IMG/VR virus record: IMGVR_UViG_3300023210_000016
Origin: a virus
Lineage: Duplodnaviria; Heunggongvirae; Uroviricota; Caudoviricetes
DNA length: 64,000 nt
Direction: 5' to 3' (one strand)
In this document: one piece after another, positions 3,410-64,000 of the stretch
Position numbering within the stretch: the stretch's first letter is position 1
Layout of the letters: the number at the start of each line of letters is the position of its first letter
Notes under the pieces: model-generated
What the model saw: only the letters and a program-made list of their open reading frames with translations
Told to the model about the DNA's origin: nothing
Databases searched by the model: none
Translations under genes and position numbers: made by a program

Positions 3410-4483
3410 ATGTCCTTTTTAAAGAGCGTTGCAGTTATCCTGATTAGTGTGTTTTTTGTTACCTCGACAGATGCCCACCATATCAATTTAGCTGATCTAG
3501 TGCAGACGGTGGAGAAGAGCATCGTAATTGTACAAGCTGTTCCGAACGAACAACCAAAACCAATAAAAAACAGCAACCCTTTTAGTCAATACGGACAACC
3601 CCCTGCCAAAAAACCCGATCCTGCACAAAAAGATCAACCAACTAAGTCCGGAACAGGGTTTGTGGTTGAAGGTGGAATCATTGTAACAAACGCTCATGTG
3701 GTTGAAGATTCCAAGTTTGCATACGTGTTATTCAAGAACCAAATGAAACGCCACAAAGTGATAATCAAACATCTCGATAGAAAAGCTGATATCGCCGTTC
3801 TCGTACCCGAAAATAATCAATTATTAGTCAGCATCGCCCCATTATCATTTAGTACTGACCTCTTACGATCAGGTCAGTCGGTGTTTGCTATCGGTCATCC
3901 ACTAGGATTCAAATACACGGTATCTACCGGCATTATCAGTAGCCCAAGTGTTCATTTGCCACAAGATACCAATCCGTTCCGCAGATTCGTACAAACCGAC
4001 ACAAGCATCAATCAAGGAAATTCTGGTGGCCCTTTGATGAACCATAGAGGCGAAGTTGTTGGCGTGAACACAATCATTATTTCACCCGGCAGAGTAGGAT
4101 CAATTGGATTGGGTTTCAGTCTAAGAGGTGATTATGTTCAGCGTGTGTTGAACCATTTTCGTAACTTTGGTGAGATCAAACGTCCGCGCATTGGCATTAA
4201 GTTAGGCTATAACCAAGAAAAAGAACGCCTATATGTTATGGAAATACAACCAAACTCACCTGCATCAAGTAGTGGGATATTGGTCGGAGACCTGATATTG
4301 AAGATCAATGCTGACGAGATAACCCTCATGGAACATATCTTCAATGCATTAGAACAACTGATGCCAAATGATGATATGAGAGTGCAAGTTAGCCGTGATG
4401 GTGTTATCACGACATATTCAGTGATCTTGGGTGATCTACGAGAATTTGAAAAGAAAGAAGCTCTAAAACTTAAAGTACGTTGA
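3410..4483 (+). CDS. HtrA/DegP-like trypsin-family serine protease with C-terminal PDZ domain, 357 aa; N-terminal signal peptide
   Basis: Catalytic motifs 'TNAHVV' (His), 'DIAVL' (Asp) and 'GNSGGPL' (Ser); hydrophobic N-terminus; RBS AGGAG 7 nt upstream. Confidence 0.85.
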   Translation: MSFLKSVAVILISVFFVTSTDAHHINLADLVQTVEKSIVIVQAVPNEQPKPIKNSNPFSQYGQPPAKKPDPAQKDQPTKSGTGFVVEGGIIVTNAHVVEDSKFAYVLFKNQMKRHKVIIKHLDRKADIAVLVPENNQLLVSIAPLSFSTDLLRSGQSVFAIGHPLGFKYTVSTGIISSPSVHLPQDTNPFRRFVQTDTSINQGNSGGPLMNHRGEVVGVNTIIISPGRVGSIGLGFSLRGDYVQRVLNHFRNFGEIKRPRIGIKLGYNQEKERLYVMEIQPNSPASSSGILVGDLILKINADEITLMEHIFNALEQLMPNDDMRVQVSRDGVITTYSVILGDLREFEKKEALKLKVR

Positions 4484-6062: not shown

Positions 6063-6429
6063 TCGCTCGTTCTTTGCACTTGTTTGTGCCTTCGGTTATG
6101 CCTTTCAGGGCGTTCAAGGCATCTAGGGTTGATGTGTCGGAATTGAGCGGGTACACATAATCTGGTGCCGCTGCGAGTTTGCTGTACTTCAGTGCAAACA
6201 CAGTGAATGTTTGACTGTTCTCGAATCGGAATGTGGTAAATGGCACCCGAAAATCACTCACCTGATATATGATATATCCTTCTAACTGACGTGCGTATTG
6301 CGCCATTGCCAGTGCTTCCGCGTCTGCGAGTGAACGGAGAGTCAATAACGGAAGGCTCATATCCACGAAGAATTTCATCTCGTGATTATCAATCATGGAT
6401 GACGGTATAAAATTCGAATGTCCTAGCAT
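6031..6429 (-). CDS. Hypothetical protein, 132 aa
   Basis: ORF; no recognisable motif. Confidence 0.45.
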   Translation of the reverse strand: MLGHSNFIPSSMIDNHEMKFFVDMSLPLLTLRSLADAEALAMAQYARQLEGYIIYQVSDFRVPFTTFRFENSQTFTVFALKYSKLAAAPDYVYPLNSDTSTLDALNALKGITEGTNKCKERAIEIDAKGWTG

Positions 6430-6604
6430 TATTTGTCCCTTAACAGGAGCGATGATATTCGGTGCTCCAAGAATTCCTTTACGATTGTTCGTTTGTGGGG
6501 TTCATTCCACGGCATGCTCATAAGGTCTAATTCTTCAAGCATGTTTTTACACATTTGCATCTCGTTGTACGAACCGGTATCTAGTGTCACCCTGATCTCC
6601 TACG

Positions 6605-6633
6605 TTGACTTTATAACGACCATCATATATAAT
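6605..6633 (+). promoter_or_regulatory. sigma70 consensus promoter TTGACT-N17-TATAAT driving 6677..8218
   Basis: Read directly: ttgact(6605-6610)...tataat(6628-6633). Confidence 0.6.
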
Positions 6634-6676
6634 TAACAACATCGAGTCAAGCTAAATATCTCGTATAGGAGAGATA

Positions 6677-8218
6677 ATGTTAATAGATGCTACCGGTCAA
6701 AAAGTGATCAATTTACCAAGCATAATCATATCATTTTCGTCGTTTGAACAGAGCGGGGTTGACCTGATAATAATGCTCAATGGGGAAAAAATTATTGTCG
6801 AACAGTATTTTCTGCAAAACCCATTGCCTATCATTCAAGTCGATGGTGCAAATATATACCCCGTGGATACTATTGACAATCATGTCGGTACTGTGGTATA
6901 TGTTACAGGTGACGTAGTGGTAAAGACAGATGATATATCATGGCGTTTAGTGAAAGTAGGCGATAAGCTTTATCAGGATGAAGTGATTATCACCCCCGGC
7001 GATGGTATCGTGAAGATAGCGTTAGATCATGGTTCGTTTATCGAATTGAAACAAGGGCAAAGACTGGTACTGGATGAAGTTATCTTCGACCAAGAAATAC
7101 CACCGATGCCGGGAATGCAATTAGATGTGAGCCAATTCAGTATGCCAGATTTATACGGATTGCATGTATCGATTGATCCAATAATGAAATACATTGATCC
7201 AGATAACGACCATTATGATCCAGATAAGTATTATGAACTCAGACTACAAAGGGATGAAGAACGTGCATCAGATGGACCTGCCACTGAAGTGGTCGATGGC
7301 GAATTTCCACCAAAGTTTAGCTTCGTCTCTGAAGCCAGTGGAAATACCGGAATACTTACAACCAGAGATACCGCCACCGGACCTATTGGCAATTTCACAA
7401 GCATTGAGCTGGATTCGGGACAGGAATTGGCCACCCCAACTGGAGATGAAATTGGAACGACCGTTGGATCGGAGACAACGCAAACCGTCAACGATGTACC
7501 TGACACAAATCCAGTACCAATTCCAGAAGAGCCAGTAGATGATAGTACCGACACCGGATTGGCGGAACACACCGACGACGGATCAACTGGAACTGGAGTT
7601 TCCACGCCTGATCCAGATTGCAACGATGACGCTGGACCCGCAACTGATCCAACCCCTGACACAAGTCCAGTACCAGTTCCTACCCCCGAACCCACCGCAG
7701 TCGTAACTGTTTCAACTGTTACAGAAACATTTGTTACATCTTCTGAACCAACAATAACTACGGTTTGGATTCGTGACACAATCGCAGACGAACTGATCGA
7801 CAACAAACACCCCGATATTGACAACGGCGGCGAAGGTCACGATAAACATAGTGATCTTGTTCGGACAACGTTCAGTCATTTCGTGGATGAGTCAGTTATC
7901 GAAATCACCACGACGGTTGTAGAAACTACCACAACCACAACCGTGATAGGTGATCAGGCCCCGACTATTATTGTCGAGGGGCCAACGGTAATCAATGAGT
8001 CAGTGACTTCTGAAACTTCTGCCAGTTCTCGCACAGAGACAACAAATATCGAATTCATTGATGACCATGATAATGGCCACGGCAACGAAGATGATCATAA
8101 CGATAATTCTAATTCGGGCAAAGGCAAGGGTAAAAAAGATCATGACGAAGATGAGCAAGAAGGGTACACGTTGACGCCACCACATGATACTCCGCACGAT
8201 CCCGAGATCATTCAGTAA
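6677..8218 (+). CDS. Thr/Pro/Asp-rich low-complexity protein, 513 aa, with internal repeats (DTNPVPIPE/DTSPVPVPT); possible surface or structural protein
   Basis: Long ORF behind a consensus promoter; globular N-terminal ~140 aa then T/P/D/E-rich region. Confidence 0.55.
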   Translation: MLIDATGQKVINLPSIIISFSSFEQSGVDLIIMLNGEKIIVEQYFLQNPLPIIQVDGANIYPVDTIDNHVGTVVYVTGDVVVKTDDISWRLVKVGDKLYQDEVIITPGDGIVKIALDHGSFIELKQGQRLVLDEVIFDQEIPPMPGMQLDVSQFSMPDLYGLHVSIDPIMKYIDPDNDHYDPDKYYELRLQRDEERASDGPATEVVDGEFPPKFSFVSEASGNTGILTTRDTATGPIGNFTSIELDSGQELATPTGDEIGTTVGSETTQTVNDVPDTNPVPIPEEPVDDSTDTGLAEHTDDGSTGTGVSTPDPDCNDDAGPATDPTPDTSPVPVPTPEPTAVVTVSTVTETFVTSSEPTITTVWIRDTIADELIDNKHPDIDNGGEGHDKHSDLVRTTFSHFVDESVIEITTTVVETTTTTTVIGDQAPTIIVEGPTVINESVTSETSASSRTETTNIEFIDDHDNGHGNEDDHNDNSNSGKGKGKKDHDEDEQEGYTLTPPHDTPHDPEIIQ

Positions 8219-8219
8219 G

Positions 8220-8676
8220 TTATTGCGGCACGACCATCATGGTTAGTGTTCCAAAATATGAGCCAGCCGGTGCACTTGCGAGATCGCTCCCCTGTATGCG
8301 CACTTCTATTGTGGCCGTACCTGATCTGCAAAACGGCAATTTTCTACCCATCGCTTTTCCGGTAAGATTATGAATAGCAGTTCCTGTAGACAATTGCACT
8401 AAATTTCCTTGTCTGCTTTCTTTATACCAAACTTGAAAAGGTATATCGGCAGGTCCACTAGATACAACAAAGGCACCGGCAGCACCAGACCCTGTTACTG
8501 TTATACTATAAATTTTGTTGGTGGCGGCAACACAATGCACCGACTCACTGATTATTTCAGCAGCCCCCCAGCCATGTACCAAGATTGATATCGTCTATGT
8601 CTTGGATAATTGCATCTGCTGCGTATACAGGGAATGCATACAACATAAGAGCAAGTGCAAGAAATAGCTTTTTCAT
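8220..8676 (-). pseudogene. SCPU-domain (spore-coat-U/Csu-pilin-like) secreted protein split by a frameshift at a G6 (C6 on + strand) tract at 8564..8569
   Basis: 40-aa ORF from ATG 8676 encodes signal peptide 'MKKLFLALALMLYAFPVYAA' plus 'DIDDINLGTW' and stops just after the homopolymer. The TTG-start 120-aa ORF (8220..8582) continues in another frame with the SCPU C-terminus 'GSYFGTLTMMVVPQ'. Removing one G restores a ~152-aa protein collinear with the paralogue 8680..9213. Confidence 0.55.
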
Positions 8677-8679
8677 GGG

Positions 8680-9237
8680 TTATTCAGCGGCAACCAATAA
8701 TGTTAATGTTCCCGTAAAGGTGCCCACTGGTGCAGAGGCAAGGGAACTTTCGGTAACATCGATGCCAAGAGTAGCCGTTAATGCCGAACCACCATTACAG
8801 TTAGTGCTTGTAGCAGATGATGTTTGTCCCGCTAATGCTGAACCAGAAGTCAATGATGTTCCACTAGAAGAACCAGCAACATCATCCCACTTAACGGTGT
8901 AAGGAACCGTGTTAGTTCCGTCTGTCATTTCAAATGCACCGCCCGTTCCACTGCCACTAGCTGTGATAGAATAGCCGGTATTACTTGTCCAAATACAAAC
9001 ATCATCGGTTGATGATAGTGGGCCTGTTCCGGTCCATGTGCCGAAAGCAATATCGTCTATCGCTGTAATTCGAGCCAATGCTGGCACGGTAACGGAGATA
9101 GTACTAGTGCCTGATGATGTTGCGCCCACGTTTCCTTGGGATGCCGCAAATGCTTGAGCATTAATGATTGTTGCAATTGACCCTGCAACAAGGGCTGTTC
9201 TGATAAAAGTCATCGTAGTTCCTGTTATTCTTATCAT
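8680..9237 (-). CDS. SCPU-domain secreted protein, 185 aa in track; probable true start at Met9, 9213
   Basis: Signal peptide 'MTFIRTALVAGSIATIINAQAFAA'; N-terminal 'ITAIDDIAFGTW' and C-terminal 'PVGTFTGTLTLLVAAE' resemble the spore-coat-U/Csu pilin domain; RBS AGGAAC before the second Met. Confidence 0.6.
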   Translation of the reverse strand: MIRITGTTMTFIRTALVAGSIATIINAQAFAASQGNVGATSSGTSTISVTVPALARITAIDDIAFGTWTGTGPLSSTDDVCIWTSNTGYSITASGSGTGGAFEMTDGTNTVPYTVKWDDVAGSSSGTSLTSGSALAGQTSSATSTNCNGGSALTATLGIDVTESSLASAPVGTFTGTLTLLVAAE

Positions 9238-9245
9238 GAACTATT

Positions 9246-9263
9246 TATCTAAAATTTTAGATA
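9246..9263. promoter_or_regulatory. Perfect 18-bp palindrome TATCTAAAATTTTAGATA just upstream of the SCPU gene
   Basis: Read directly; sits ~-30 to -50 relative to the start codon. Confidence 0.5.
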
Positions 9264-9293
9264 AGATATAATAAGCTAGAACTACTCTAAAGG

Positions 9294-9372
9294 TACTAGG
9301 GGCCGGAATCGAACCGACTCGCCTTGCGGATGCCGTTATGAGCGGCAGGACTCCCCATTTGTCTTCCCTAGC
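9294..9372 (-). tRNA. tRNA, anticodon CAU (Met or Ile2-like), 79 nt, atypical 12-nt variable region and 3-bp D-stem; no encoded CCA
   Basis: Manual fold: acceptor GCTAGGG/CCCTAGT, anticodon stem TGCCG/CGGCA with loop CTCATAA, T-arm GTCGG-TTCGATT-CCGGC. Confidence 0.55.
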
Positions 9373-9543
9373 ATTAGTTAATCATCCTTCAATATGTACT
9401 TTTCAATACTCATGGCGAAGTATAACAAAGATGCGTATTGATCGTCTCTATACCGCTCACGTGGTCCGTCATCAGGCACATTATGCCCATAAAAAGTAAT
9501 GGCCTGTTCCATGATAGCAAGACGATCTGCTGGTGTTAAGTAC

Positions 9544-9972
9544 TTAGAATCTGCCACGTTTTTTCCAATACCTCAACCATTTAGGAAATGATTTCGCTGC
9601 CGGTGCCATATCTAGATTGTACTCGGCGCGTTTGATGCGTGTTTCTATTCGCTCCATAGCTTTTCCCAATGGTGATTTGTCGTACCGAAACTGTCGCGGT
9701 AGCTTGGGTACGGAAACAGTTTCTCCCGTGAATTCAGCCATGCTTTGATGACCTTTGGAAGAGTTACATGGAACACACGCGACAACAGTGTTGTCATCAC
9801 GATGGTAACGTCCAGTATCTTTCAATGGAATGATATGATCAACTGTTGCCGTTTTGTAATCAAGTTTGCACTCACAGTAGTAGCATTTAAACCTTTGCTC
9901 CCGAAGCTTCCGGTCCCGATTCAGGCGATAGAAAGCTTTTTCTGTGCGTGATCTGAGTTTAACGTGCCCCAT
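9544..9972 (-). CDS. HNH endonuclease, 142 aa
   Basis: 'CYYCECKLDYKTATVDHIIPLKDTGRYHRDDNTVVACVPCNSSKG' (C-x2-C...H...N...H/C-x2-C). Confidence 0.75.
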   Translation of the reverse strand: MGHVKLRSRTEKAFYRLNRDRKLREQRFKCYYCECKLDYKTATVDHIIPLKDTGRYHRDDNTVVACVPCNSSKGHQSMAEFTGETVSVPKLPRQFRYDKSPLGKAMERIETRIKRAEYNLDMAPAAKSFPKWLRYWKKRGRF

Positions 9973-10180
9973 AGACTTCTACCGCAGAATCCAACATAGT
10001 TGATGCCAGCATGCGGAATTGATCAGCAGCGTCCACTGTTGGGAAAAAGAAAACCTGTTTTAGTTTCCCGAAGCGATCCGTTCCAAGTTCCATGATGTCT
10101 GACGGTCCCATGCCAATTTCAAAATGATCAGTGAAATCGACATTTGTTGCGAACGTCACGATTTTGTTCAATTTATCCAT
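9959..10180 (-). CDS. Hypothetical protein, 73 aa
   Basis: ORF between the AP2 and HNH genes. Confidence 0.4.
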   Translation of the reverse strand: MDKLNKIVTFATNVDFTDHFEIGMGPSDIMELGTDRFGKLKQVFFFPTVDAADQFRMLASTMLDSAVEVYGAR

Positions 10181-10181
10181 C

Positions 10182-10442
10182 TTAGTACCTCATGAATTTC
10201 AAGCGTTCAGGCAAGTTCTTGCGATTTTGGTAGTTCAAGGTAGCAGAAGTGAAGAAACCTTCATCGTTCTTCACCTTCGTCACCAAACCGGCTGCATGCT
10301 TAACTGCAGCTTCTTCAGAACCGTATTTGTAGTTAGTGGTGTACACCAACCGGCGAGACTTGTCCTTGAACACTCGTACGCGCCACTTACCTTTGCGGTG
10401 CTCACGAAATGCTTTGATCTCATATGAATCAACTTTGGTCAT
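10182..10442 (-). CDS. AP2-domain DNA-binding protein, 86 aa
   Basis: 'GKWRVRVFKDKSRRLVYTTNYKYGSEEAAVKHAAGL' fits the AP2/ERF pattern (G.W.A.I.....LG.F.T.EEAA.AYD.AA); RBS AGGAGG. Confidence 0.55.
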   Translation of the reverse strand: MTKVDSYEIKAFREHRKGKWRVRVFKDKSRRLVYTTNYKYGSEEAAVKHAAGLVTKVKNDEGFFTSATLNYQNRKNLPERLKFMRY

Positions 10443-10465
10443 TTGCTTCCTCCTGATTAGTCTAT

Positions 10466-10493
10466 ACTATACCAGAATTTTGCATGGTGTCAA
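10466..10493 (-). promoter_or_regulatory. sigma70-like promoter TTGACA-N16-TATAGT (minus strand) driving the AP2/HNH operon
   Basis: Read directly: tgtcaa at 10488..10493 and actata at 10466..10471 on the + strand. Confidence 0.55.
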
Positions 10494-10774
10494 GTGTTTT
10501 CCTGTAGTGGGATATTAGTAAAGCATATCATCAACTCTGATGCGACAATCGTTCAAGTCTATCGTGCCATCGAGTATCATTTTTTCAACAGAGGCTACAA
10601 TGGCATCTTCTTTATCCCTGAGTCCCGCCAGCGCCACGTTCGGATTTTTGAAACCATGATCTTCGATATCAACGTAGCAGTTAACAATAACAAATCTGTC
10701 CATCGGAAGTCTCCCTAGTTGTTGGTGTTGAAGTATAAATTGAAGTATAACATGGAGTCTCGGGATGTCAACAA

Positions 10775-36259: not shown

Positions 36260-36276
36260 GTTTAATTATCAATTAG

Positions 36277-36348
36277 AGCGGCCAGTCGGGTTCGAACCGA
36301 CGACATTTTCGTTGGCAACGAAATATTCTACCACTGAATTATGGCCGC
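36277..36348 (-). tRNA. tRNA-Gly (anticodon GCC), 72 nt, no encoded CCA
   Basis: Canonical cloverleaf: acceptor GCGGCCA/TGGCCGC, D-arm ATTC-AGTGGTA-GAAT, anticodon loop TTGCCAA, T-arm GTCGG-TTCGAAC-CCGAC. Confidence 0.85.
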
Positions 36349-38243: not shown

Positions 38244-38269
38244 GATAATTGATCTTTAGTTAATATTAG

Positions 38270-38361
38270 TACCCCCGCCGAGACTCGAACTCGGAACGCT
38301 CTCTAATCTGGAGACTGTGCTGATTATAAATCAGGGGTTTTACCAATTAAACTACGGGGGC
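38270..38361 (-). tRNA. Atypical tRNA, 92 nt: anticodon loop TTTATAA (UAU, Ile-AUA-like), long 24-nt variable arm with its own stem-loop; no CCA
   Basis: Acceptor GCCCCCG/CGGGGGT (G1-U72), D-arm GTTT-AATTGGTA-AAAC, anticodon stem CTGA/TCAG, T-arm CCGAG-TTCGAGT-CTCGG. Confidence 0.5.
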
Positions 38362-44994: not shown

Positions 44995-46482
44995 TCATGT
45001 CTTGAGGCATACTTTAACTCCGTATTCTACTTCGAATTCTTGAGCATCATGCTCATCGTTAACCATCGGCATGCCGCGAATGTTCAAGGATGTATTCAAC
45101 AACATCGGACATCCAGTCGCTTGATACCATTGTTCCAACAGTTTACGTAACCCCGAATTGTCATCTTTGCCAACAGTTTGAACTCTTGAGGTACCATCTT
45201 TGTGAATAATAGCAGGGAAATCCATTGGTCGTTTGCATGGCATTGTGTATTGCATCCATGTCGATTTATGAATACCAGACGGAACATAGAAATAATCCGT
45301 CAGATGCTCTTCCAAAATCACTGGCGCAAATGGTCGGAATTGTTGTCTACGTTTGATCTCGTTTACCTTGTCCTTGATCTCTGGACCTCGGGGATCAGCC
45401 AGCAATGAACGATTGCCCAAAGCACGTGGACCATATTCGGCTCGACCATTGGCGACACCAACAATCTTGTTCCTTAGTAGTTCATCCAACAACGCTTTAA
45501 CGGGATAATCTCCCTCGATATCAGTTCCAAGGAAGGTGCTAGGTACCGTTATTTTTCCACCATGTGCCAGTGCGGCGGCACCCAATGCAGACCCAGCATC
45601 ACCCGGATTAGGCATGATGTACATACGATCAAATATCTTGGCGTTGGCCAATCGGGTGTTCAATACACAATTCAATGCGACACCGCCCATGAATACAACG
45701 TTGGTGCATCCGGATAGCTTTTTAGCGAGTGCAAACACTTCCATCATTTCTGTTTCTAAGACATATTGCACACTTGCTGCTAAATCATTTATGTCAGCTT
45801 CAGGTTTCCAATCACCAATCCCACGATGTAGATTGGCACCGAGGAAGTCATCTCTAATATCTTGTGCATATTTTGGTCCACCATATGCAGCCATGCCCAT
45901 CAAGATGTATTCTTCATCCATTGGCTTCAAACCACATCGTTCAGTGAATGCGGAATACAACAGCCCGAGCGATTTAGGGTATTTGGCTGAATACAGTTTC
46001 TTGTACAATGCTCTGCCGTTATGATATCTTGCATGCCATATAGTTGTGCAATCAAATTCACCAATAGCATCAACCACAACGACACATGCTTCATTGAAGC
46101 CAGATGTTTGGAACCCTGCGGCAGCATGCGATTTGTGATGCGTGTAATAATAGATAGGTGGATTGCTGACAGTGTTATTGATTGCTTTGAATAAGCGAAT
46201 ATGTGAACTAGGCCATACCGTTGACATATGGTTATGGAATATCTCACCTGAGAGAAGCTGTCTTGCCTTCTTAAGCAACGGTCTCTCATAGTAAGCAATC
46301 TTGTCAAAGCCACTACCACTAACCCTTAAAGCTTCTTCAAGCATCCCATCGTTGAGATATTTGTCGAATTTCTTGCCACTGTACCGCTCTGCATGTGCTG
46401 CAAACGTAACCGTATCGTCTTGTATCAATGCACAAGCAGCATCGTGATGACCGAATGATAGTCCTAGAATGTTAGTAGACAT
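44995..46482 (-). CDS. NodU/CmcH-family carbamoyltransferase, 495 aa
   Basis: N-terminal 'ILGLSFGHHDAACALIQDD...AHAERYSGKK' and overall length fit the carbamoyltransferase family. Confidence 0.8.
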   Translation of the reverse strand: MSTNILGLSFGHHDAACALIQDDTVTFAAHAERYSGKKFDKYLNDGMLEEALRVSGSGFDKIAYYERPLLKKARQLLSGEIFHNHMSTVWPSSHIRLFKAINNTVSNPPIYYYTHHKSHAAAGFQTSGFNEACVVVVDAIGEFDCTTIWHARYHNGRALYKKLYSAKYPKSLGLLYSAFTERCGLKPMDEEYILMGMAAYGGPKYAQDIRDDFLGANLHRGIGDWKPEADINDLAASVQYVLETEMMEVFALAKKLSGCTNVVFMGGVALNCVLNTRLANAKIFDRMYIMPNPGDAGSALGAAALAHGGKITVPSTFLGTDIEGDYPVKALLDELLRNKIVGVANGRAEYGPRALGNRSLLADPRGPEIKDKVNEIKRRQQFRPFAPVILEEHLTDYFYVPSGIHKSTWMQYTMPCKRPMDFPAIIHKDGTSRVQTVGKDDNSGLRKLLEQWYQATGCPMLLNTSLNIRGMPMVNDEHDAQEFEVEYGVKVCLKT

Positions 46483-56189: not shown

Positions 56190-56789
56190 TTAGGTTATAC
56201 GGAATTTCTCATCATGGTTTTTCTTACCCAGCATTAACTTGATAGTGACTTCGCTATCCGGCAGAAACCCTTTTTTGATGTACTTTTTGATACGCCGCTC
56301 GACATTATCCCATCCATGATCGGCGATGGACTTATTCACGTCGATGAAATGTAATGTACCTGTTTCCAAATCGGCAATTGCTTCCGGAGTATGAATAACC
56401 TGCTTCCCATCGGTGGCGAATTGACATACCGTGATATCGAAACTATTGATACAATCAATTGCGGTTTCCTCTGAACGGAAGCCAACACAATTCAATACGT
56501 ATCCAATATAATTCAACCAGCACAGTGCGCCGTGGCCATAATCATTGCCTTGTCGTTGCTGATGGTTGTCGGTTGCGCCGCAATCATACAGGGTTTGCTT
56601 GAATTCTTGGTATTGCGCTTTGTTGGCGAAGTAGATGTCCACATCATTCGCATTCAAGAAGTTACCATCCTGATGGAAGTTCAATGCGGCACCGCCAGCG
56701 ATCCATGGCCCGTTGTTCAGGTCCATCAATGGGAGCAAGTTGGTGATGTTGTATGGCTTATGTGATAGATTCATCATCGTCTTCATCAT
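56190..56789 (-). CDS. Pol-beta-superfamily nucleotidyltransferase; head-domain motifs resemble tRNA CCA-adding/poly(A) polymerase, 199 aa
   Basis: 'IAGGAALNFHQDGNFLNANDVDIYF' (GG...DxD) and 'INSFDITVCQFA' (cf. RDFTINA). Confidence 0.4.
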   Translation of the reverse strand: MMKTMMNLSHKPYNITNLLPLMDLNNGPWIAGGAALNFHQDGNFLNANDVDIYFANKAQYQEFKQTLYDCGATDNHQQRQGNDYGHGALCWLNYIGYVLNCVGFRSEETAIDCINSFDITVCQFATDGKQVIHTPEAIADLETGTLHFIDVNKSIADHGWDNVERRIKKYIKKGFLPDSEVTIKLMLGKKNHDEKFRIT

Positions 56790-57792: not shown

Positions 57793-58554
57793 TTATAGCT
57801 CAAAGGTCTGGCCTTTCACAACCCAACCACGGAACCCATCCTGAATACAATCAGCTTTGTCGCCGGGTTGATAATGATATAGCCACATTTTGGCTTTGGT
57901 TTCTTCGTCCAGTGTCACCAGTTCATTGTAGTGAGCATGTACGCCAGATGGGAACGGAGAGGTTTCACTGTCCTGAAAAATTATGTCAGACATGTTGTAG
58001 AAATCTCTGATCTGGTTCGGATTGAATTGGGTGTCGGTTGTAATGAAATACGAAACTTCATTCACGGTGAACATCAATCCATACGAAGGTACGATGTCAA
58101 ACCCATCCATATAATGAACAACTTGAACCAACGTAAATGACACGCCTTCCCACAGGAATGATCCGTTCTTCTCGATAGCTTCGACAACAAAGTAATCATC
58201 CAACGATGTGATTTTGGTTTGAATTGATCCTGCGCCACCAGACAAGGTATGAGTCCATAGATCGGGTGCAAGATTTTCATTCACAAACAACGTAGGGCGC
58301 TTTAGCGTAGGATTGAAATACGTACTGAACATCAAGTATTCCATTCCGCCAACATGATCGGCGTGTTGGTGACTGACGTACACAGCATCAATGGTATCCA
58401 GTTCGATCCCCTGATCTCGCAGTGAGAACCTGATATCAGTTCCACAATCAATCAACAGACGTTTGCCGTTGTCCGCTTCGATGATCATATTGGATTGATA
58501 GTTATTTGGCTCTAGCGTAAAGGCCGAACCTGCGCCTAAGAATATGAGTTTCAT
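57793..58554 (-). CDS. Metallo-beta-lactamase-fold hydrolase (RNase Z/BN-like), 253 aa
   Basis: 'LIFLGAGSAF...LLIDCGTDIRF...VYVSHQHADHVGG' (HxHxDH). Confidence 0.7.
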   Translation of the reverse strand: MKLIFLGAGSAFTLEPNNYQSNMIIEADNGKRLLIDCGTDIRFSLRDQGIELDTIDAVYVSHQHADHVGGMEYLMFSTYFNPTLKRPTLFVNENLAPDLWTHTLSGGAGSIQTKITSLDDYFVVEAIEKNGSFLWEGVSFTLVQVVHYMDGFDIVPSYGLMFTVNEVSYFITTDTQFNPNQIRDFYNMSDIIFQDSETSPFPSGVHAHYNELVTLDEETKAKMWLYHYQPGDKADCIQDGFRGWVVKGQTFEL

Positions 58555-59003
58555 TCTGTTTCTTCCTCGTAAATATAGTAGTGCTTTTGAATGTTCGCTG
58601 GCATTGCGTCATACCGCTTCGAGTGAATGGTCACGTTTCCATCATAGGAGCCGACAAGACAGGCGATGTGCTGCATCTCTTCTGAAAGATTAGTTGTGTC
58701 GAGTCTATAATATACCGGATTTTCTGGCTCACCTGCGTTAATTCGATCAATGCGACGTTGATGCTCTTCCTTGGTGTCTCTGAAAGCATCCCAACACGCA
58801 AATCCAAAGGCCGACACAAATAGTAAAATGCCGAACCCTGCCGCAATATTTCCGAATAGTTCTTTCCCAGCCATAGCATAAATGCCAAACCCGAATCCGA
58901 CAACCAAAGCTACCGCCAGAGCGACGACGACAGTGCCTACGATTAGGCCCTTCCACGTAGAACATGTGGCATTCATATAGCAACGCTCAAGCCATGCTTT
59001 CAT
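58551..59003 (-). CDS. Membrane protein, 150 aa
   Basis: Two long hydrophobic helices. Confidence 0.4.
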   Translation of the reverse strand: MKAWLERCYMNATCSTWKGLIVGTVVVALAVALVVGFGFGIYAMAGKELFGNIAAGFGILLFVSAFGFACWDAFRDTKEEHQRRIDRINAGEPENPVYYRLDTTNLSEEMQHIACLVGSYDGNVTIHSKRYDAMPANIQKHYYIYEEETE

Positions 59004-59174
59004 GATTCAAATCCTTTTGGTGCTAGGTTTTTGTAGTATTCTAACTCTTTTTCAAGTTCTTCGATAACATAGTACGCTTTATTGATGGTGTTATACATGA
59101 TGTAGATACAAATAAATTGGATCGACATTGCAATTATTAAAGCTATGAGTAACATATGATCGCTTTCTAAAGAG

Positions 59175-59332
59175 TGGTGGGTCTTGACGGGATCGAACCG
59201 CCGACATTCTCGGTGTCATTTGAACCTCAAAGATTTCCCTTCTTGGTTCCCCAATGCAGAGTTCGATGAACTCCGGAGACTTTATGGAAGTCTCACATAA
59301 ACGAGATGCTCTACCATCTGAGCTAAAGACCC
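59175..59332 (-). tRNA. tRNA-like gene, 158 nt with encoded CCA: canonical acceptor/D/T arms but an ~82-nt insertion (putative intron) in the anticodon loop; the spliced loop would be TTTATGC (UAU)
   Basis: 5' exon GGGTCTT-TA-GCTC-AGATGGTA-GAGC-A-TCTCG; 3' exon CGAGA-ATGTC-GGCGG-TTCGATC-CCGTC-AAGACCC-A-CCA; 89 nt lie between the paired anticodon-stem halves. Confidence 0.55.
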
Positions 59333-59385
59333 TTACTATATTTTGATCATTGTAATGTATTTAGCAAACACTGTCAAGTGATATT

Positions 59386-60285
59386 TTAATCATGTTCATT
59401 CTTCGGTATGTATTGCTTGACTACGCATGGTGTATTACCCCACCCCTTTTGCTCTGCTTCTTTTCTCGTTTTGAATAACAAGGGTGGTTCCTCCCAGCTA
59501 CCGCCGTGATTGAGCCAACCTTCCCAATACCGGCTGCGGCTGTCGGGGCCATGATTCAGTATTATCCAAACTCCGTACTTCACCATATCATTTCCATATC
59601 TTATACAGGTTCTTCTCAATATATTGTTCAACTCGATACATTGATTTACTCATTGTTGATCGCCAAAAACTTTTACCGCGCAAATGCTCTTCTGCTTGCT
59701 TGCGGGTATCAAATAACAACGGCGATGTGTTCTTGCCGTAATCATGTGTGTAACTGATACGTTTTGCAAACCATCCCTCACGTTGGCCAGTTGTGGTATA
59801 CGTGACGATATAATATCTAACGCACATACGTGCTGCGATCTTTGCTACGATACTGCCAATTATCAACCGATGTGACCGGAACAATTTTGATATGATGTGC
59901 CCATGTTGTCATTCGATCTTTCATGTATCGTTCTGCGTGAACCCGATTCTTGAACACATACAACTGATCATAACGATCATCTTTATCGTATGGTTTGGTC
60001 ACGTATTCCCATTTGCAATTCGGCTGCGTCTTTGGGTCAGTGGCGTATTTGATTACGAACTTTTGCATGTTTGTCTTTCTTCGGGATGTATTGCTTGACG
60101 CTGAATTGATGCACGAATTGTCTTCCAATTTCTCTGGCCACTACAGTTTCAATAAAACGTTCGCCTTCTTCTCTGGTGTTGAACAGTACTCGATTCAAGG
60201 GATTACGAAAAAATTGCCACCCGCCTTTTCTAAACCCAATAATAAGAGTGGTATGATGTCTTCGCCATAGTCCGTACTTTACCAC
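59386..60285 (-). repeat. Tandem array of four paralogous small genes (~75-85 aa each; track ORFs 59386..59631, 59588..59884, 59817..60128, 60037..60285)
   Basis: Shared motifs MVKYG.W ... LLF.TR.EAE ... VKQYIPK across all four translations. Confidence 0.6.
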
Positions 60286-60300
60286 CGAGAACTCCTGATG

Positions 60301-60669
60301 TCAAACGGTGGTTTGGGTAGCTGAAACGAAATAACCTTTCCAGTCATCCGGAACACCAGATGCCTGTAATTCTTCGGCGCGTGTTTTCATCACCTGATAG
60401 TATTCGCGCATGTCTTCCCCGAACCTGATCTCCAACTGTTCTGCCATCTGTGCAACAAACTCGAACTGTTTGTCCCGATAGTTCTCTAATAGTTTGTCAT
60501 GCATTTGCTTGTAGTGATCTAGATTGATCAGAGTTGGTGCTGGGATTTCTGACAACACACAGTATGCCGTGATGGTATCTTCGGTCTCTAACAAAAAGGT
60601 ATCGAGTTCAAGCACCGTGTATTTGTCTTCGATACTTGCTAATTCGTGGTTGCCCCAAATGATATTCAT
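60301..60669 (-). CDS. Hypothetical acidic protein, 122 aa
   Basis: ORF. Confidence 0.4.
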   Translation of the reverse strand: MNIIWGNHELASIEDKYTVLELDTFLLETEDTITAYCVLSEIPAPTLINLDHYKQMHDKLLENYRDKQFEFVAQMAEQLEIRFGEDMREYYQVMKTRAEELQASGVPDDWKGYFVSATQTTV

Positions 60670-60671
60670 GA

Positions 60672-60986
60672 TTACATTCCCGTAGGATAATAAGGTTGAA
60701 CGCCAGAGTCTTGATCTTCAATACTTTCCACAAGTTGAACTTCTGGAATGAAATGAGTCAACATGTTTTGGACGCCGTATTTGATTGTGGCGTTAGAACT
60801 AGCACACCCGGCACACGCGCCTGACATGAACATGGTAGCCACGCCATCTTTATATGATTCAAGGGTGACTGAGCCGCCGTGTTGGGCCACCATAGGTGCA
60901 ACGTGAATTTCTAATAGGTCATTAATCTCTTGTGTGATCTCTTCGTCGGTCTTATCGGTCATCTGTTTTTTCCGTTCGTTCTTCAA
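60672..60986 (-). CDS. Nfu/NifU-C-terminal-domain Fe-S cluster carrier, 104 aa
   Basis: 'MVAQHGGSVTLESYKDGVATMFMSGACAGCASS' matches the Nfu CxxC domain. Confidence 0.75.
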   Translation of the reverse strand: MKNERKKQMTDKTDEEITQEINDLLEIHVAPMVAQHGGSVTLESYKDGVATMFMSGACAGCASSNATIKYGVQNMLTHFIPEVQLVESIEDQDSGVQPYYPTGM

Positions 60987-61293
60987 GAATTGTTTCTGTT
61001 TTCACCACCCGTTTATCGATGGCGTGTACTTCTTCTGTCATTGTATCTACCCGTTGATACAGTCTCAAATTCGACGTTTTGCCACGTTCTGCCTGTTCAT
61101 CGATCAATGACACAAGCTGGTCATGCTTACTCGACACATGCCTAAGAATACCCACTACAACGGCTACTAGGGAGCCAATCCCTGTAAACATCAAACCGGC
61201 AAACGCCATTAACAACTCAAAAATACCAATACTATCCATGCAGTATTTAGATGTTTTGTAGTGGCAGCACCTGTACGTAATCAAGACCAACAT
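60952..61293 (-). CDS. Membrane-anchored coiled-coil protein, 113 aa
   Basis: TM helix then coiled coil. Confidence 0.4.
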   Translation of the reverse strand: MLVLITYRCCHYKTSKYCMDSIGIFELLMAFAGLMFTGIGSLVAVVVGILRHVSSKHDQLVSLIDEQAERGKTSNLRLYQRVDTMTEEVHAIDKRVVKTETILEERTEKTDDR

Positions 61294-62068
61294 TCAATGA
61301 TTTTTCATGTTCGGGCATTTCCCAAAGATAATGTTCCCCACCATCTTTACCACCGGCAAAAATAAAACCCGAATCGACCTCACTGAAGCCTTTATACAGA
61401 CACACCAGCTTATCTTTTGGACAATTCTTAGTGGGGTGCATCCTCATGTTAACGGGCCTTGAGAAAGAACCGAGTGTACCACCCTTAATCAAATCCTCGT
61501 TAGATGGATGATACACCAATACATTACCTGCGCCACGCCGGGTCTTTTGTGCAATTTTGTTACCCATACGAACGATCATTGGACCCAATCTTTTACCGCC
61601 GTGCAAATAACGCCCTTCGGTTAGTTTTATGTCTTCAATCACGGTAGGATCATAGATATCACGCGATGGCGCGTTCTTGCAAACATTATGCAGAAAATGA
61701 TATTCGGCATGGCCTAGCGATTTGACTGGAGTACAGTTTTTACCGTCCGGACCAACGATATCATTCAGAATAGAACTGTTCAATTGGCCGGGAGAAGTAG
61801 TAGCCCCTACGTTGTGTAGGGTGTCGAAATTCTCGTTGCGGATATATTGTGTTCGCAATGAAAATATCATATGATTATTAAAGGAAGTGCCATTTGGCCG
61901 GTTTGAGAAAAACGCCCCGTCATTGCGATCCGGTGTTTTCCATGATTGATTAGCAAAGAATGATTCTTCAACCTCATACCAATCTGGTTTAATCAACAGT
62001 GATACGCTGGGAATGGCTAATACAGTGGATGCTACAAGACCTTTTAAAAATCCCCTACGAGTAATCAT
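61247..62068 (-). CDS. Tat-signal secreted protein, 273 aa
   Basis: Twin-arginine motif 'TRRGFLKGLVASTVLA'. Confidence 0.5.
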   Translation of the reverse strand: MITRRGFLKGLVASTVLAIPSVSLLIKPDWYEVEESFFANQSWKTPDRNDGAFFSNRPNGTSFNNHMIFSLRTQYIRNENFDTLHNVGATTSPGQLNSSILNDIVGPDGKNCTPVKSLGHAEYHFLHNVCKNAPSRDIYDPTVIEDIKLTEGRYLHGGKRLGPMIVRMGNKIAQKTRRGAGNVLVYHPSNEDLIKGGTLGSFSRPVNMRMHPTKNCPKDKLVCLYKGFSEVDSGFIFAGGKDGGEHYLWEMPEHEKSLNVGLDYVQVLPLQNI

Positions 62069-62256
62069 TAACCTATCCGATCATTATTCTTGGACTCGCG
62101 GATTATCTTCAATGCCCACAAGATTCCTTGTAGCAGCAAATATGCAAAACCTGCGATGATAATCGGGATGATCATTACTCGCCAGATTGGTCCAAACGCT
62201 ACGGTAACTGCTGCGAGACACGCGAACAGAACCACCCATGCTATATATTTCTTCAT
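62068..62256 (-). CDS. Small 2-TM membrane protein, 62 aa (holin-like)
   Basis: Two hydrophobic helices, basic C-terminus. Confidence 0.4.
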   Translation of the reverse strand: MKKYIAWVVLFACLAAVTVAFGPIWRVMIIPIIIAGFAYLLLQGILWALKIIRESKNNDRIG

Positions 62257-62477
62257 TCTTGTTCTCCTTTTGTGTCGGGTTCTTGTATTTTGAAATCAAC
62301 CCTATTGAATGCCCACTTAATAGTTTCGGAAACAGCACCAATAGCCAGACATACGCCGAGAATTATCATTATTGGTTTCCACCAATAATACACCAAAGTT
62401 GCCACTGCAGCAATACAACATGCAATGGTTGCAATAGCGATCAACGTGGCTAGACCTTGTTTGAATTGTTCCATCAA
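62253..62477 (-). CDS. Small 2-TM membrane protein, 74 aa (holin/antiholin-like)
   Basis: Two hydrophobic helices, charged C-terminus. Confidence 0.4.
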   Translation of the reverse strand: MMEQFKQGLATLIAIATIACCIAAVATLVYYWWKPIMIILGVCLAIGAVSETIKWAFNRVDFKIQEPDTKGEQE

Positions 62478-62729
62478 TTTAGCTTCCCTATGATTTTGTC
62501 ACATTTCTGAACCATTTCTTGCAGGGAAGATACTTGGGCTTCGCCGATATTGGCGTCTTCCAGCAAGCGTTCGCCTTCACGCTTATACAGCATTGCCCGT
62601 GATTTTTTATCAAGGCTTGCGATACAAACTTCAATTACCGTAGGATCAGATTGCATGGTCATGATTGCAGCATCCGCGTCATTTGTTGCGAACTCGCACA
62701 TCTCCCGAAGCTCTGTTAAAAACTGAAAA

Positions 62730-63155
62730 CTATACATCTTCTTCCCTTTGCTTTACGCCTAAACGCGCATTCACCATTTGTTCAAACTCTTTGTCTAAAT
62801 CACTGTATTGGATTGTTTCACCACTTGCATGATCTTTGACAATGTTACGAGGCTCATGATAGGTTCGAATGGTTTCATCAGATTCGTAACGTTTACGCGA
62901 CTCTTTTTGATTATACAGGTTTACTACCCGATGTGCAAGTTTTGTGAACGCCTCTTTTTGATTACGGGATCGTTCACGGAAATTCTGACCGGTTTCCATC
63001 ATGCCAGATTCGATATGGGTGATCCTGCAACAGTTCTGATGTTTGTTGCGATGCTGCCCACCTGCGCCGGTACCACTGAACCAATCGATCTTGAAATCTT
63101 TCTTGGTGAACGATAGATGCGGTATTCGCTCTAAGTGCATGTTAGTTTTGACCAT
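62730..63155 (-). CDS. ArfB/class-I release-factor-like GGQ-domain peptidyl-tRNA hydrolase, 141 aa
   Basis: 'SGTGAGGQHRNKHQNCCRITHIESGMMETGQNFRERSRNQKEA' matches the RF GGQ domain (SG.GGQ.VNK....R..H.P.G..V.CQ..RSQ..N). Confidence 0.75.
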   Translation of the reverse strand: MVKTNMHLERIPHLSFTKKDFKIDWFSGTGAGGQHRNKHQNCCRITHIESGMMETGQNFRERSRNQKEAFTKLAHRVVNLYNQKESRKRYESDETIRTYHEPRNIVKDHASGETIQYSDLDKEFEQMVNARLGVKQREEDV

Positions 63156-63193
63156 AGGTCGTGCGCCTCTTGTTTGGCTTCGTCAAGTTGTTC

Positions 63194-63580
63194 TTATGAC
63201 CATGTTTGTTTGAACGTGATGAATTCGAGATCATTTGTGAAATAGAAAGTTCGGAGCCTAAAGTATGTTCCTTCGCGGCAGTTCCCATATTCTTCGATGG
63301 GAATTTGTGCGTCTTCTAAATACATCTCACGCATCTCGTACCATTCCGGATTCGCCAGCCCGAATGTTAGATCAGGTGATCCAACTAAAACAACGTCCGC
63401 ATACATGCCAAGGATTTCAAAATCTCCGGTATCGGGGTCTTCTTCGCCATACTCGATGTCCGTTATACATCCGTCATACTCATATACCATGTGCTCTTGC
63501 GATGGGGGTGGATACTCCCAATGTGGATTAGGTTCGTCTCCATAATTTGAAAGAAACACCTTTGTTTCGGTATCGGTCAT
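63194..63580 (-). CDS. Hypothetical acidic protein, 128 aa
   Basis: ORF. Confidence 0.4.
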   Translation of the reverse strand: MTDTETKVFLSNYGDEPNPHWEYPPPSQEHMVYEYDGCITDIEYGEEDPDTGDFEILGMYADVVLVGSPDLTFGLANPEWYEMREMYLEDAQIPIEEYGNCREGTYFRLRTFYFTNDLEFITFKQTWS

Positions 63581-63894
63581 TCTTCTTCGACTTTGACCTC
63601 AAGTGGAAATTCTGCCTGTCTGGCGGCGACCATGATCTCAGTACGCTTCTGTTCTGCGATCTCATACACAAAGGACGCAACAACGGCTGAACCATTTTCA
63701 TGGATTTCTACCGCTTTATCCTCGGCGCGATCATATGTGTAATTCAATACACCAACCAATGATTCAATGACGAACTCAAACGATGTTTGTTCATCGTTCA
63801 TGTAGATCACGCTGAACATACTTGGTAGCGCCACCTTGACTTTGGTGATTGTTTTGGTTTTTTCAATGGTATCTGTTGTCATTTTATCACTCAT
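63577..63894 (-). CDS. clpS: ClpS-like ATP-dependent Clp protease adaptor, 105 aa
   Basis: 'PSMFSVIYMNDEQTSFEFVIESLVGVLNY...AEDKAVEIHENGSAVVASFVYEIAEQK' matches the ClpS fold signature (P.MY.V.L.NDDYTPM.FV...L...F). Confidence 0.75.
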   Translation of the reverse strand: MSDKMTTDTIEKTKTITKVKVALPSMFSVIYMNDEQTSFEFVIESLVGVLNYTYDRAEDKAVEIHENGSAVVASFVYEIAEQKRTEIMVAARQAEFPLEVKVEEE

Positions 63895-64000
63895 TGTTAG
63901 TTCAAGGGTTCTTTCGGCATCAATTCTTGGAATGGAAAATCATACACTTGGAAATCTTTCCAAGGTGAGGTTGATATTTCCGCTGGTTTCTTATCGCCTT

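Follow-up and report, generated by a model that had tools for sequence, protein, structure and literature searches.

A phage-specific release factor reduced to RF1-type domains 3 and 4, a candidate stop-codon-independent hydrolase for stalled ribosomes

Towards the end of a 64,000-nucleotide (nt) stretch of Caudoviricetes DNA (IMG/VR record IMGVR_UViG_3300023210_000016; "the window" hereafter means this whole stretch at its full length) lies an open reading frame (ORF) of 141 amino acids (aa), at 62730..63155 on the minus strand, with an ATG start codon. By all the comparisons described below, its product reads as a class-I release factor (RF) from which the stop-codon reader has been removed, so that domains 3 and 4 of an RF1-type protein remain. 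The family to which it belongs is restricted to phages. A protein that has the catalytic GGQ motif and no codon-recognition domain is most naturally taken for a stop-codon-independent peptidyl-tRNA hydrolase with a role in rescue, and we propose that the product is a minimal, phage-specific class-I release factor of this kind, which would act in a ribosome-dependent manner and free stalled ribosomes during infection. We give this proposal a probability of roughly 55%.

The identity of the catalytic domain is the firmest point. An earlier note on this DNA, made from the letters alone, had ascribed a class-I release-factor GGQ domain to the protein, and this is borne out by Pfam RF-1 (PF00472), which matches aa 15-109 with a score of 66.4 bits where 35 would suffice (E=2.7e-18); the GGQ domain is therefore not a chance resemblance, and only 16 residues stand ahead of it. 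Of the NCBIfam models, those for RF1 (55.6 bits, equivalog cutoff 400; positions 209-336 of 347) and RF2 (54.4 bits, cutoff 370; positions 222-348 of 353) align solely through their C-terminal domains 3-4, and that for PrfH (41.9 bits, cutoff 166.65; positions 103-179 of 200) through the GGQ domain only. The same ranking of models, headed by the C-terminal part of RF1/RF2, was obtained for 91 of 91 aligned family members. No match to the PCRF region (domains 1-2), which canonical relatives do have, was found in the 141-aa protein. When the protein is compared with PDB sequences by phmmer, aa 16-130 align with RF1 residues 230-356, and the RF1 hallmark segment 'IRTYNFPQNRVTDHRIG' reads 'IRTYHEPRNIVKDHASG' in the phage version. 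Alignment with canonical RF1 fragments sets the start of the protein at the domain 2/3 boundary and its end at the end of domain 4, with 9-10 residues deleted relative to RF1 directly before 'GDRSEKIRTYN', at the place where helix alpha7 ends and the switch loop lies.

The predicted fold leads to the same place. An AlphaFold2 (AF2) model, built on 91 homologues (pLDDT 87, pTM 0.54), arranges strands 21-26, 42-47 and 53-56 around the GGQ loop and continues with a 28-residue helix (62-89), a hairpin (97-100/105-108), a third strand and a C-terminal helix, the part from the hairpin onwards being predicted with a pLDDT of 91-97. Among the Foldseek matches in the PDB, RF1, RF2, mtRF1a or mtRF1 dominate the top 47, many of them over ~135-150 columns, and PrfH comes in at rank 38. 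Because models, fold and RF1 alignment agree, the protein is best described as RF1 domains 3 and 4 without domains 1 and 2.

Is such a reduced gene still at work? In the aligned homologues the GGQ motif (91/91), W25, R97, Y99 and D108 are invariant, which settles in favour of the motif the doubt, raised in the earlier note, that it might not survive careful alignment. More widely, GGQ was found in 250 of 261 short relatives; among the 11 without it, 10 seem to be gene calls cut short at the N-terminus, and the eleventh, a full-length protein, has GGH instead. This last is the metagenomic member P0233, which reads 'GGNGGHNVNN' at the motif and may be a catalytically altered variant. One usable gene pair gave a dN/dS of ~0.07, with dS saturated. 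Taken together, the invariant residues, the retention of GGQ and the low dN/dS of that one pair argue that the gene is functional and under selection, and not a remnant of prfA.

The family is also large, its metagenomic members of 120-165 aa being put at 2000 or more. A word-indexed search returned 2018 matches, a total in which canonical release factors are included, and the best 120 of them are 124-168 aa long, with 49-74% identity over 77-94% of the query. An exhaustive profile search was made against 1.84 billion cluster representatives (50% clustering), with the best 150 considered: nearly all of these are of 100-165 aa, and the few long proteins among them are ordinary PCRF+RF-1 release factors rather than informative fusions. 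The best-scoring canonical relatives are RF1-type and one is fused to PrmC_N, as at prfA-prmC loci, which fits an RF1 origin of the family. As for where the members occur, 68 IMG/VR viral loci, on contigs of up to 360 kb, carry the gene, and a further member sits on a contig of 384 kb. In 185,579 species genomes only six matches appeared, all on short contigs (1.8-36 kb) of metagenome-assembled genomes (MAGs) from unrelated phyla, and these are most simply explained as mis-binned phage DNA. A tblastn search of INPHARED gave 66 records, all below 60% identity and at 25-36% among the matches listed; the two that were inspected are a full-length host-type RF2 beside lysS and a full-length RF1. 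No close member was found in the cultured phages of INPHARED by this search.

A further question is how the protein compares with the GGQ factors already described. To judge from its sequence, the architecture of domains 3 and 4 without a tail fits none of RF1/2, PrfH, ArfB/ICT1 and mtRF-R. It is homologous to RF1 (PrfA) over its whole length, through the GGQ loop, alpha7, the 'IRTY..P.N.V.DH' hairpin and the C-terminal helix, and it keeps the canonical RF1/RF2 succession of domain 3 and then domain 4 (IRTYN...DHR hairpin plus C-terminal helix). It departs from RF1 in having no PCRF domains 1-2, hence no PxT/SPF reader and no RF3-interacting domain, in being ~10 residues shorter at alpha7 and the switch loop, in a score (55 bits) below the equivalog cutoff of 400, and in occurring in phages only. 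With mtRF-R (C12orf65) it shares the condition of a GGQ-only release-factor homologue without codon recognition, together with a weak sequence match. mtRF-R ends in a basic helix and acts together with MTRES1 on split large subunits (PDB 7a5h); the phage protein ends in a release-factor domain 4. ArfB and ICT1 are likewise small (~140 aa) GGQ proteins with no codon-recognition domain, and the phage protein is presumably as independent of stop codons as they are. In ArfB, a basic helix on a flexible linker enters the empty mRNA channel (PMC7427801, PMC7641280); the phage protein has a folded, acidic release-factor domain 4 in its place, and the ArfB model is not satisfied. PrfH, finally, is a truncated release-factor homologue without domain 1 that has a catalytic GGQ and serves in rescue during biological conflict (PMC12829566, PMC9304027). 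At its N-terminus it retains a domain that recognises rRNA and descends from the codon-recognition domain, and a basic tail is present in some PrfH proteins as well (PMC12829566). The phage protein, also a truncated release factor with GGQ, has neither the rRNA-recognition domain nor the basic tail. RtcB, the operon partner of PrfH, has no family mark in the gene tables of the loci L001, L077 and L078-L080, the only ones consulted for it.

Phage-encoded rescue or termination factors were said in the earlier note to be essentially undescribed, and this goes too far. RF1/RF2, RRF, tmRNA and SmpB were reported in huge phages by Al-Shayeb and colleagues in 2020 (PMC7162821), PHROGs includes families with the RF-1 domain, BFVD includes several phage GGQ proteins, and some phage GGQ genes are placed in tRNA arrays (PMC5966550). 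The PHROGs and BFVD proteins, like ours, carry phage-encoded GGQ domains, but they match our protein through the GGQ core alone (aa 12-82 for PHROGs, 60-81 columns for BFVD) and have no domain-4 part. Only one of them, a BFVD entry of 164 aa named 'uncultured Caudovirales PrfB' (35% identity over 128 columns), resembles the full architecture. We came upon no functional work on phage GGQ proteins in the searchable literature.

In RF1 and RF2, domain 3 stays docked on domains 2/4 as long as no stop codon has been recognised; upon recognition the switch loop repacks against A1492/A1493 of h44, A1913 of H69, and S12. In the phage protein the domain-2 docking surface is gone and the switch loop is shortened; with the domain that keeps free RF1/RF2 closed missing, it is probably constitutively 'open'. 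The predicted hydrolase would enter the A site of a ribosome that has a peptidyl-tRNA in its P site, set its GGQ in the peptidyl-transferase centre and cut the ester bond, all without the reading of a stop codon. Domain 4 and the basic end of alpha7 may provide the binding, close to h44, H69 and S12, where their RF1/RF2 counterparts sit. The most basic 15-aa stretch of the protein is aa 76-90 (+4), which overlaps the start of the alpha7-end/switch-loop region (aa 81-93) and part of what lies at the h44/H69 junction in release factors. The factor would in this way recycle ribosomes and tRNAs that stall during infection, whether on degraded host or phage mRNAs or through tRNA- or mRNA-cleaving host defences, and it would complement the tRNAs, the tmRNA and the PTH2 that these phages bring along.

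The genomic company of the family was studied at 68 distinct loci of ~16 kb, which were scanned for RNA genes within 8 kb of the GGQ gene. Genes for tRNA or tmRNA occur at 28 of them, within 1 kb at 13, and in numbers of five or more at 17. Some GGQ genes are located inside arrays of 16-31 tRNAs. At L008, L029, L036, L043, L049 and L051 the gene is flanked by an array on both sides, and at L013 there are 31 tRNAs, 30 of which are upstream of the GGQ gene. In the control set of phage ClpS loci, 0 of 64 have a tRNA (Fisher p=3e-10). Phage tRNA arrays have been linked to the evasion of tRNA-cleaving defences (PMC10264068, PMC11555353), and genes with the RF-1 domain, Pth and tmRNA genes were noted by Morgado and Vicente in 2018 in the tRNA arrays of mycobacteria and mycobacteriophages (PMC5966550); a recycling role fits with both views. 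Two details of these loci deserve mention in their own right. A tmRNA gene (tag ANDNFKAFDYALAA) is located at 2112..2481 of L003, 5.5 kb from the mini release factor gene, and L004 has one as well. Moreover, ARAGORN predicts tRNAs with four-base anticodons (ctta, tagt) in arrays near the gene, at 3522..3597 of L006 and 13700..13798 of L022, which could be frameshift-suppressor-like or artefacts of prediction.

Several other explanations have to be weighed, and two of them concern what the protein is. The earlier note saw in it the architecture of ArfB (YaeJ), a rescue factor in which the GGQ domain is tethered to a basic C-terminal helix. A length of 141 aa does resemble that of ArfB, the GGQ domain is there, and 78 of the 91 family members match the ArfB model weakly (best E=2e-6). 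The window protein itself falls short of the ArfB cutoff of 100 bits, with a score of 23 and none of the stretches that match individually over the threshold, and neither ArfB nor ICT1 structures are among the top 50 Foldseek matches in the PDB. Nor is the announced basic tail present: the last 30 residues have a net charge of -4, the family median is -2, and values of at least +3 are seen in only 3% of members, while E. coli ArfB has +9 in the same comparison. What occupies this region is a homologue of RF1/RF2 domain 4, confidently predicted to be folded. A true ArfB-type factor, whose basic helix would probe the empty mRNA channel, is as good as refuted by sequence and fold, and we regard it as very improbable. 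Scarcely credible, in turn, is a non-functional remnant of a captured host prfA. The protein matches the 3' third of that gene, as a remnant would, but it has thousands of homologues with common boundaries and length, invariant residues in both the catalytic part and domain 4, a low dN/dS in the single estimate, a start codon and Shine-Dalgarno (SD)-like site of its own, and a distribution limited to phages; the conservation pattern led us to reject this candidate.

More serious is the matter of targeting, and here the points against a rescue factor that works by itself should be gathered. As judged from the sequence, the protein possesses none of the elements by which GGQ factors are known to be brought to stalled ribosomes. 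A domain for recognising codons or rRNA, such as RF1/2 and PrfH have, is missing, and so is the basic tail that serves the empty mRNA channel in ArfA, ArfB, BrfA, SmpB and PrfH-CT (PMC12829566). PrfH without a tail is unable to rescue intact non-stop ribosomes (PMC12829566). Ribosome binding through domain 4 alone is putative, the inter-domain geometry of the AF2 model is uncertain (pTM 0.54), and a release factor with no targeting could be harmful to the translation of the phage itself. As for the genomic company, the tRNA nearest to the GGQ gene in the window is ~24 kb away, and a small second control, of Apyc1 loci, has tRNAs in 3 of 12, one gene being inside an array of 19 tRNAs; closeness to tRNA arrays may thus be something that several of the accessory genes in large phages have in common. 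Further controls (HSP20, a virion protein) offered too few loci to be of use.

Since targeting is the weak point, three rivals persist. Perhaps the protein is the catalytic half of a split release factor, in need of a second protein, from phage or host, for docking at the decoding centre and for specificity; the partner might be an ArfA/BrfA-like adaptor, or a domain-2-like module that pairs with the exposed sheet edge of domain 4. Domain 4 of RF1/2 works only as part of a domain 2/4 superdomain, and in the phage family it is conserved as strongly as the catalytic core (R97, Y99 and D108 invariant). The known rescue systems, too, all require a targeting element (PMC12829566). Against this, 62 loci have no conserved protein-coding neighbour, the commonest real cluster being present at 7 of them, and the gene directly upstream varies even between close relatives, though a partner may be encoded at another place or by the host. 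We consider a split factor unlikely. Alternatively, the substrate might be met away from the 70S ribosome, either as peptidyl-tRNA on split 50S subunits, as with mtRF-R/C12orf65 and bacterial ribosome-associated quality control (RQC), or as peptidyl-tRNA that has dropped off. A phmmer match to C12orf65 (7a5h_C, E=5e-6), the missing decoding-centre reader and the co-occurrence of PTH2 in two relatives speak for it; however, sequence and fold are far closer to RF1/RF2, including the domain 4 that belongs to the 30S side, the C12orf65 match outside the GGQ domain is a generic helix, and free peptidyl-tRNA is already handled by PTH2. Action off the translating 70S ribosome is quite unlikely in our view. 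Equally slim is the prospect of a weapon for host shut-off, which would release nascent chains prematurely on host ribosomes, or occupy the A site and so remodel translation. A release factor without codon recognition is promiscuous in principle, and genes for host takeover or anti-defence (Apyc1, ClpS, S21) are found around; yet host and phage mRNAs would be indistinguishable to the protein, its company of tRNAs, tmRNA and PTH2 across the family points to support of translation, and a pure blocker is unlikely because GGQ is strictly conserved.

A bolder version of the rescue proposal, tentative and unlikely in our estimate, is that the family represents a new class of rescue factor for a type of stall with which the known bacterial factors cope badly, that of ribosomes at sense codons on intact mRNA, the cognate tRNA having been destroyed by an anti-phage nuclease. 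With no codon reader and no tail for the mRNA channel, the protein might tolerate an A site filled with mRNA. In that event it would act by kinetic competition only, when the ternary complex fails to arrive. If this were true, the mini release factor would be the protein partner of the phage tRNA arrays, freeing ribosomes and P-site tRNAs, and an anti-defence device.

The features of the gene and its surroundings are collected in Table 1. That the window is phage DNA is indicated by a virion structural protein, a baseplate-wedge connector, a weak Gp23-like match and three tRNAs; no near-identical DNA to window positions 60000-64000 was found among the INPHARED phages. The stop of the GGQ gene and the start of the downstream 87-aa ORF share 8 nt, which places the gene in a tightly packed minus-strand operon and suggests translational coupling of the two. 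Neither this ORF nor the 128-aa one has a match in Pfam or PHROGs, and a scan of 59000-64000 for sigma-70 promoters and terminators stayed at chance level.

Table 1. Features of the mini release factor gene, its domains and its surroundings (window positions)
Feature	Position	Strand	Basis or remark
Mini release factor gene, 141 aa (RF1-type domains 3+4, without domains 1-2)	62730..63155	-	ORF listing, Pfam RF-1, RF1 alignment
Domain 3 (aa 17-90): beta-strands, GGQ loop, long helix alpha7	62886..63107	-	AF2 model, pLDDT ~90; RF1 domain 3 alignment
GGQ catalytic motif codons (aa 32-34)	63054..63062	-	Direct sequence reading; conserved in homologues
Domain 4 homologue (aa 94-140), net acidic: 'IRTYHEPRNIVKDH' hairpin, third strand, C-terminal helix	62736..62876	-	RF1 'IRTYNFPQNRVTDHRIG...' alignment; AF2
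Alpha7 end and shortened switch-loop equivalent (aa 81-93)	62877..62915	-	Alignment gap before 'GDRSEKIRTYN' (RF1 and phmmer alignments)
Shine-Dalgarno-like AAGAGG, 10 nt 5' of ATG	63166..63171	-	Sequence reading; putative SD role
128-aa acidic ORF between ClpS gene and GGQ gene	63194..63580	-	ORF listing
ClpS homologue, 105 aa (public gene calls: Met5 start, 101 aa)	63577..63894	-	Pfam ClpS 75 bits
87-aa ORF downstream of GGQ gene	62474..62737	-	Coordinates; gene order matches public gene calls
tRNA genes Met(CAT), Gly(GCC), Ile(TAT; 93 nt)	9292..9372, 36276..36348, 38269..38361	-	Scattered, no array, far from GGQ gene

The earlier note had drawn attention to a ClpS adaptor next to the GGQ gene and had suggested a mini-module of translation quality control and proteolysis. 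The ClpS homologue is genuine (75 bits against a Pfam cutoff of 23) and nearby, though not strictly adjacent, the 128-aa ORF lying in between. It is divergent, falling short of the NCBIfam equivalog cutoffs (62 against 149). It aligns with residues 18-104 of E. coli ClpS, in which 'viLVNDDYTPMEFV...AVHYQG' pairs with 'viYMNDEQTSFEFV...EIHENG' of the phage protein; N, D and H are retained (N34, D35 and H66 in E. coli, which we take to be residues of the N-degron pocket), and D36 is replaced by E and M40 by F. Phage ClpS and PTH2 are both mentioned in a survey of jumbo phages (PMC7824862).

The mini-module, by contrast, did not stand. The proximity of the two genes is specific to one lineage of three genomes, in which the GGQ protein is identical in L078-L080, and 74% and 68% identical in L077 and L001, respectively. 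There, the gene order is S21, HSP20, a MotA/ExbB-like gene, two ORFs, ClpS, one or two variable ORFs and then the GGQ gene; the intervening gene is not conserved, as the 128-aa ORF is not homologous to the 113- and 118-aa ORFs that hold the same position in L077 and L001. The genes for S21, HSP20, the MotA/ExbB-like membrane protein and the two unknown ORFs are found at 6582..9259 of L078, just past the right end of the window and upstream of ClpS, and the S21-HSP20-MotA/ExbB-like block is also kept in L077 and L001. In these two loci (8401..10562 and 6398..8271, respectively), a gene of the IMPDH/GMP-reductase family comes directly after the GGQ gene and PTH2, a peptidyl-tRNA hydrolase belonging to the archaeo-eukaryotic type, ~2 kb downstream; no homologue of the PTH2, IMPDH or S21 of these related phages is present within the window. 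Beyond the lineage the pairing vanishes. When ClpS, the 128-aa ORF and eight other window proteins were compared with all GGQ loci, ClpS alone was shared, and with L001 alone, so that ClpS lies within 8 kb at only 1 of 76 GGQ loci (68 of them from IMG/VR), itself of the lineage of the window phage. Conversely, none of the 64 other distinct phage ClpS loci has an RF-1-like or GGQ gene. The clustering of 1359 ORFs from 62 loci brought out no protein-coding neighbour conserved across the family, the commonest cluster occurring at 7 loci.

The window holds other genes that may be of interest to those working on phages. In the same operon-like block as the GGQ gene, a protein with a NifU-like domain (PF01106, 68 bits) is encoded at 60672..60986 (minus strand). 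A 273-aa protein at 61247..62068 (minus strand) begins with MITRRGFLKGLVASTVLAIPSV, which resembles a twin-arginine (Tat) signal peptide and is unusual in a phage; its only match, to Gp23, is sub-threshold (22.5 bits, cutoff 24.4). An ORF with a comparable RR-type N-terminus is also close to the GGQ gene of L033. Some ~4 kb downstream of the GGQ gene there is an anti-defence gene (57793..58554, minus strand), whose 253-aa product has a metallo-beta-lactamase fold and scores 94 bits, with a cutoff of 50, for the anti-Pycsar protein Apyc1 (PF23023). Its relatives occur on phage contigs of up to 435 kb. For the ORF at 56190..56726 (minus strand), the public gene call in L078 bears a precomputed Pfam assignment to PF26128 (Gad2, anti-Gabija), while a Pfam scan of its 199-aa version was empty at E<=0.001. 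Lastly, the window carries an auxiliary metabolic gene at 44995..46482 (minus strand), whose product is a Nol-like carbamoyltransferase (phrog_1601, E=2.5e-95).

What, then, does this small protein mean for the biology of these phages? For annotation, the consequence is practical: members of the family should not carry the labels RF1, RF2 or ArfB. The value of the finding is less in the pairing with ClpS than in the unexplained targeting and in a possible link with counter-defence. The characterised GGQ rescue factors all bear a targeting element, be it a codon reader, a reader of rRNA damage or a basic tail for the mRNA channel, and here is an abundant, phage-only family without any of these, in which the catalytic motif and domain 4 are nevertheless strongly conserved. 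Since its genes are often placed in tRNA arrays, and near S21, PTH2 or tmRNA, the family bears on the question, now under study, of how phages overcome immunity directed at tRNAs and translation. To learn how these proteins find their substrate would reveal the minimum that makes a working release factor, as well as the type of stalling that large phages must overcome.

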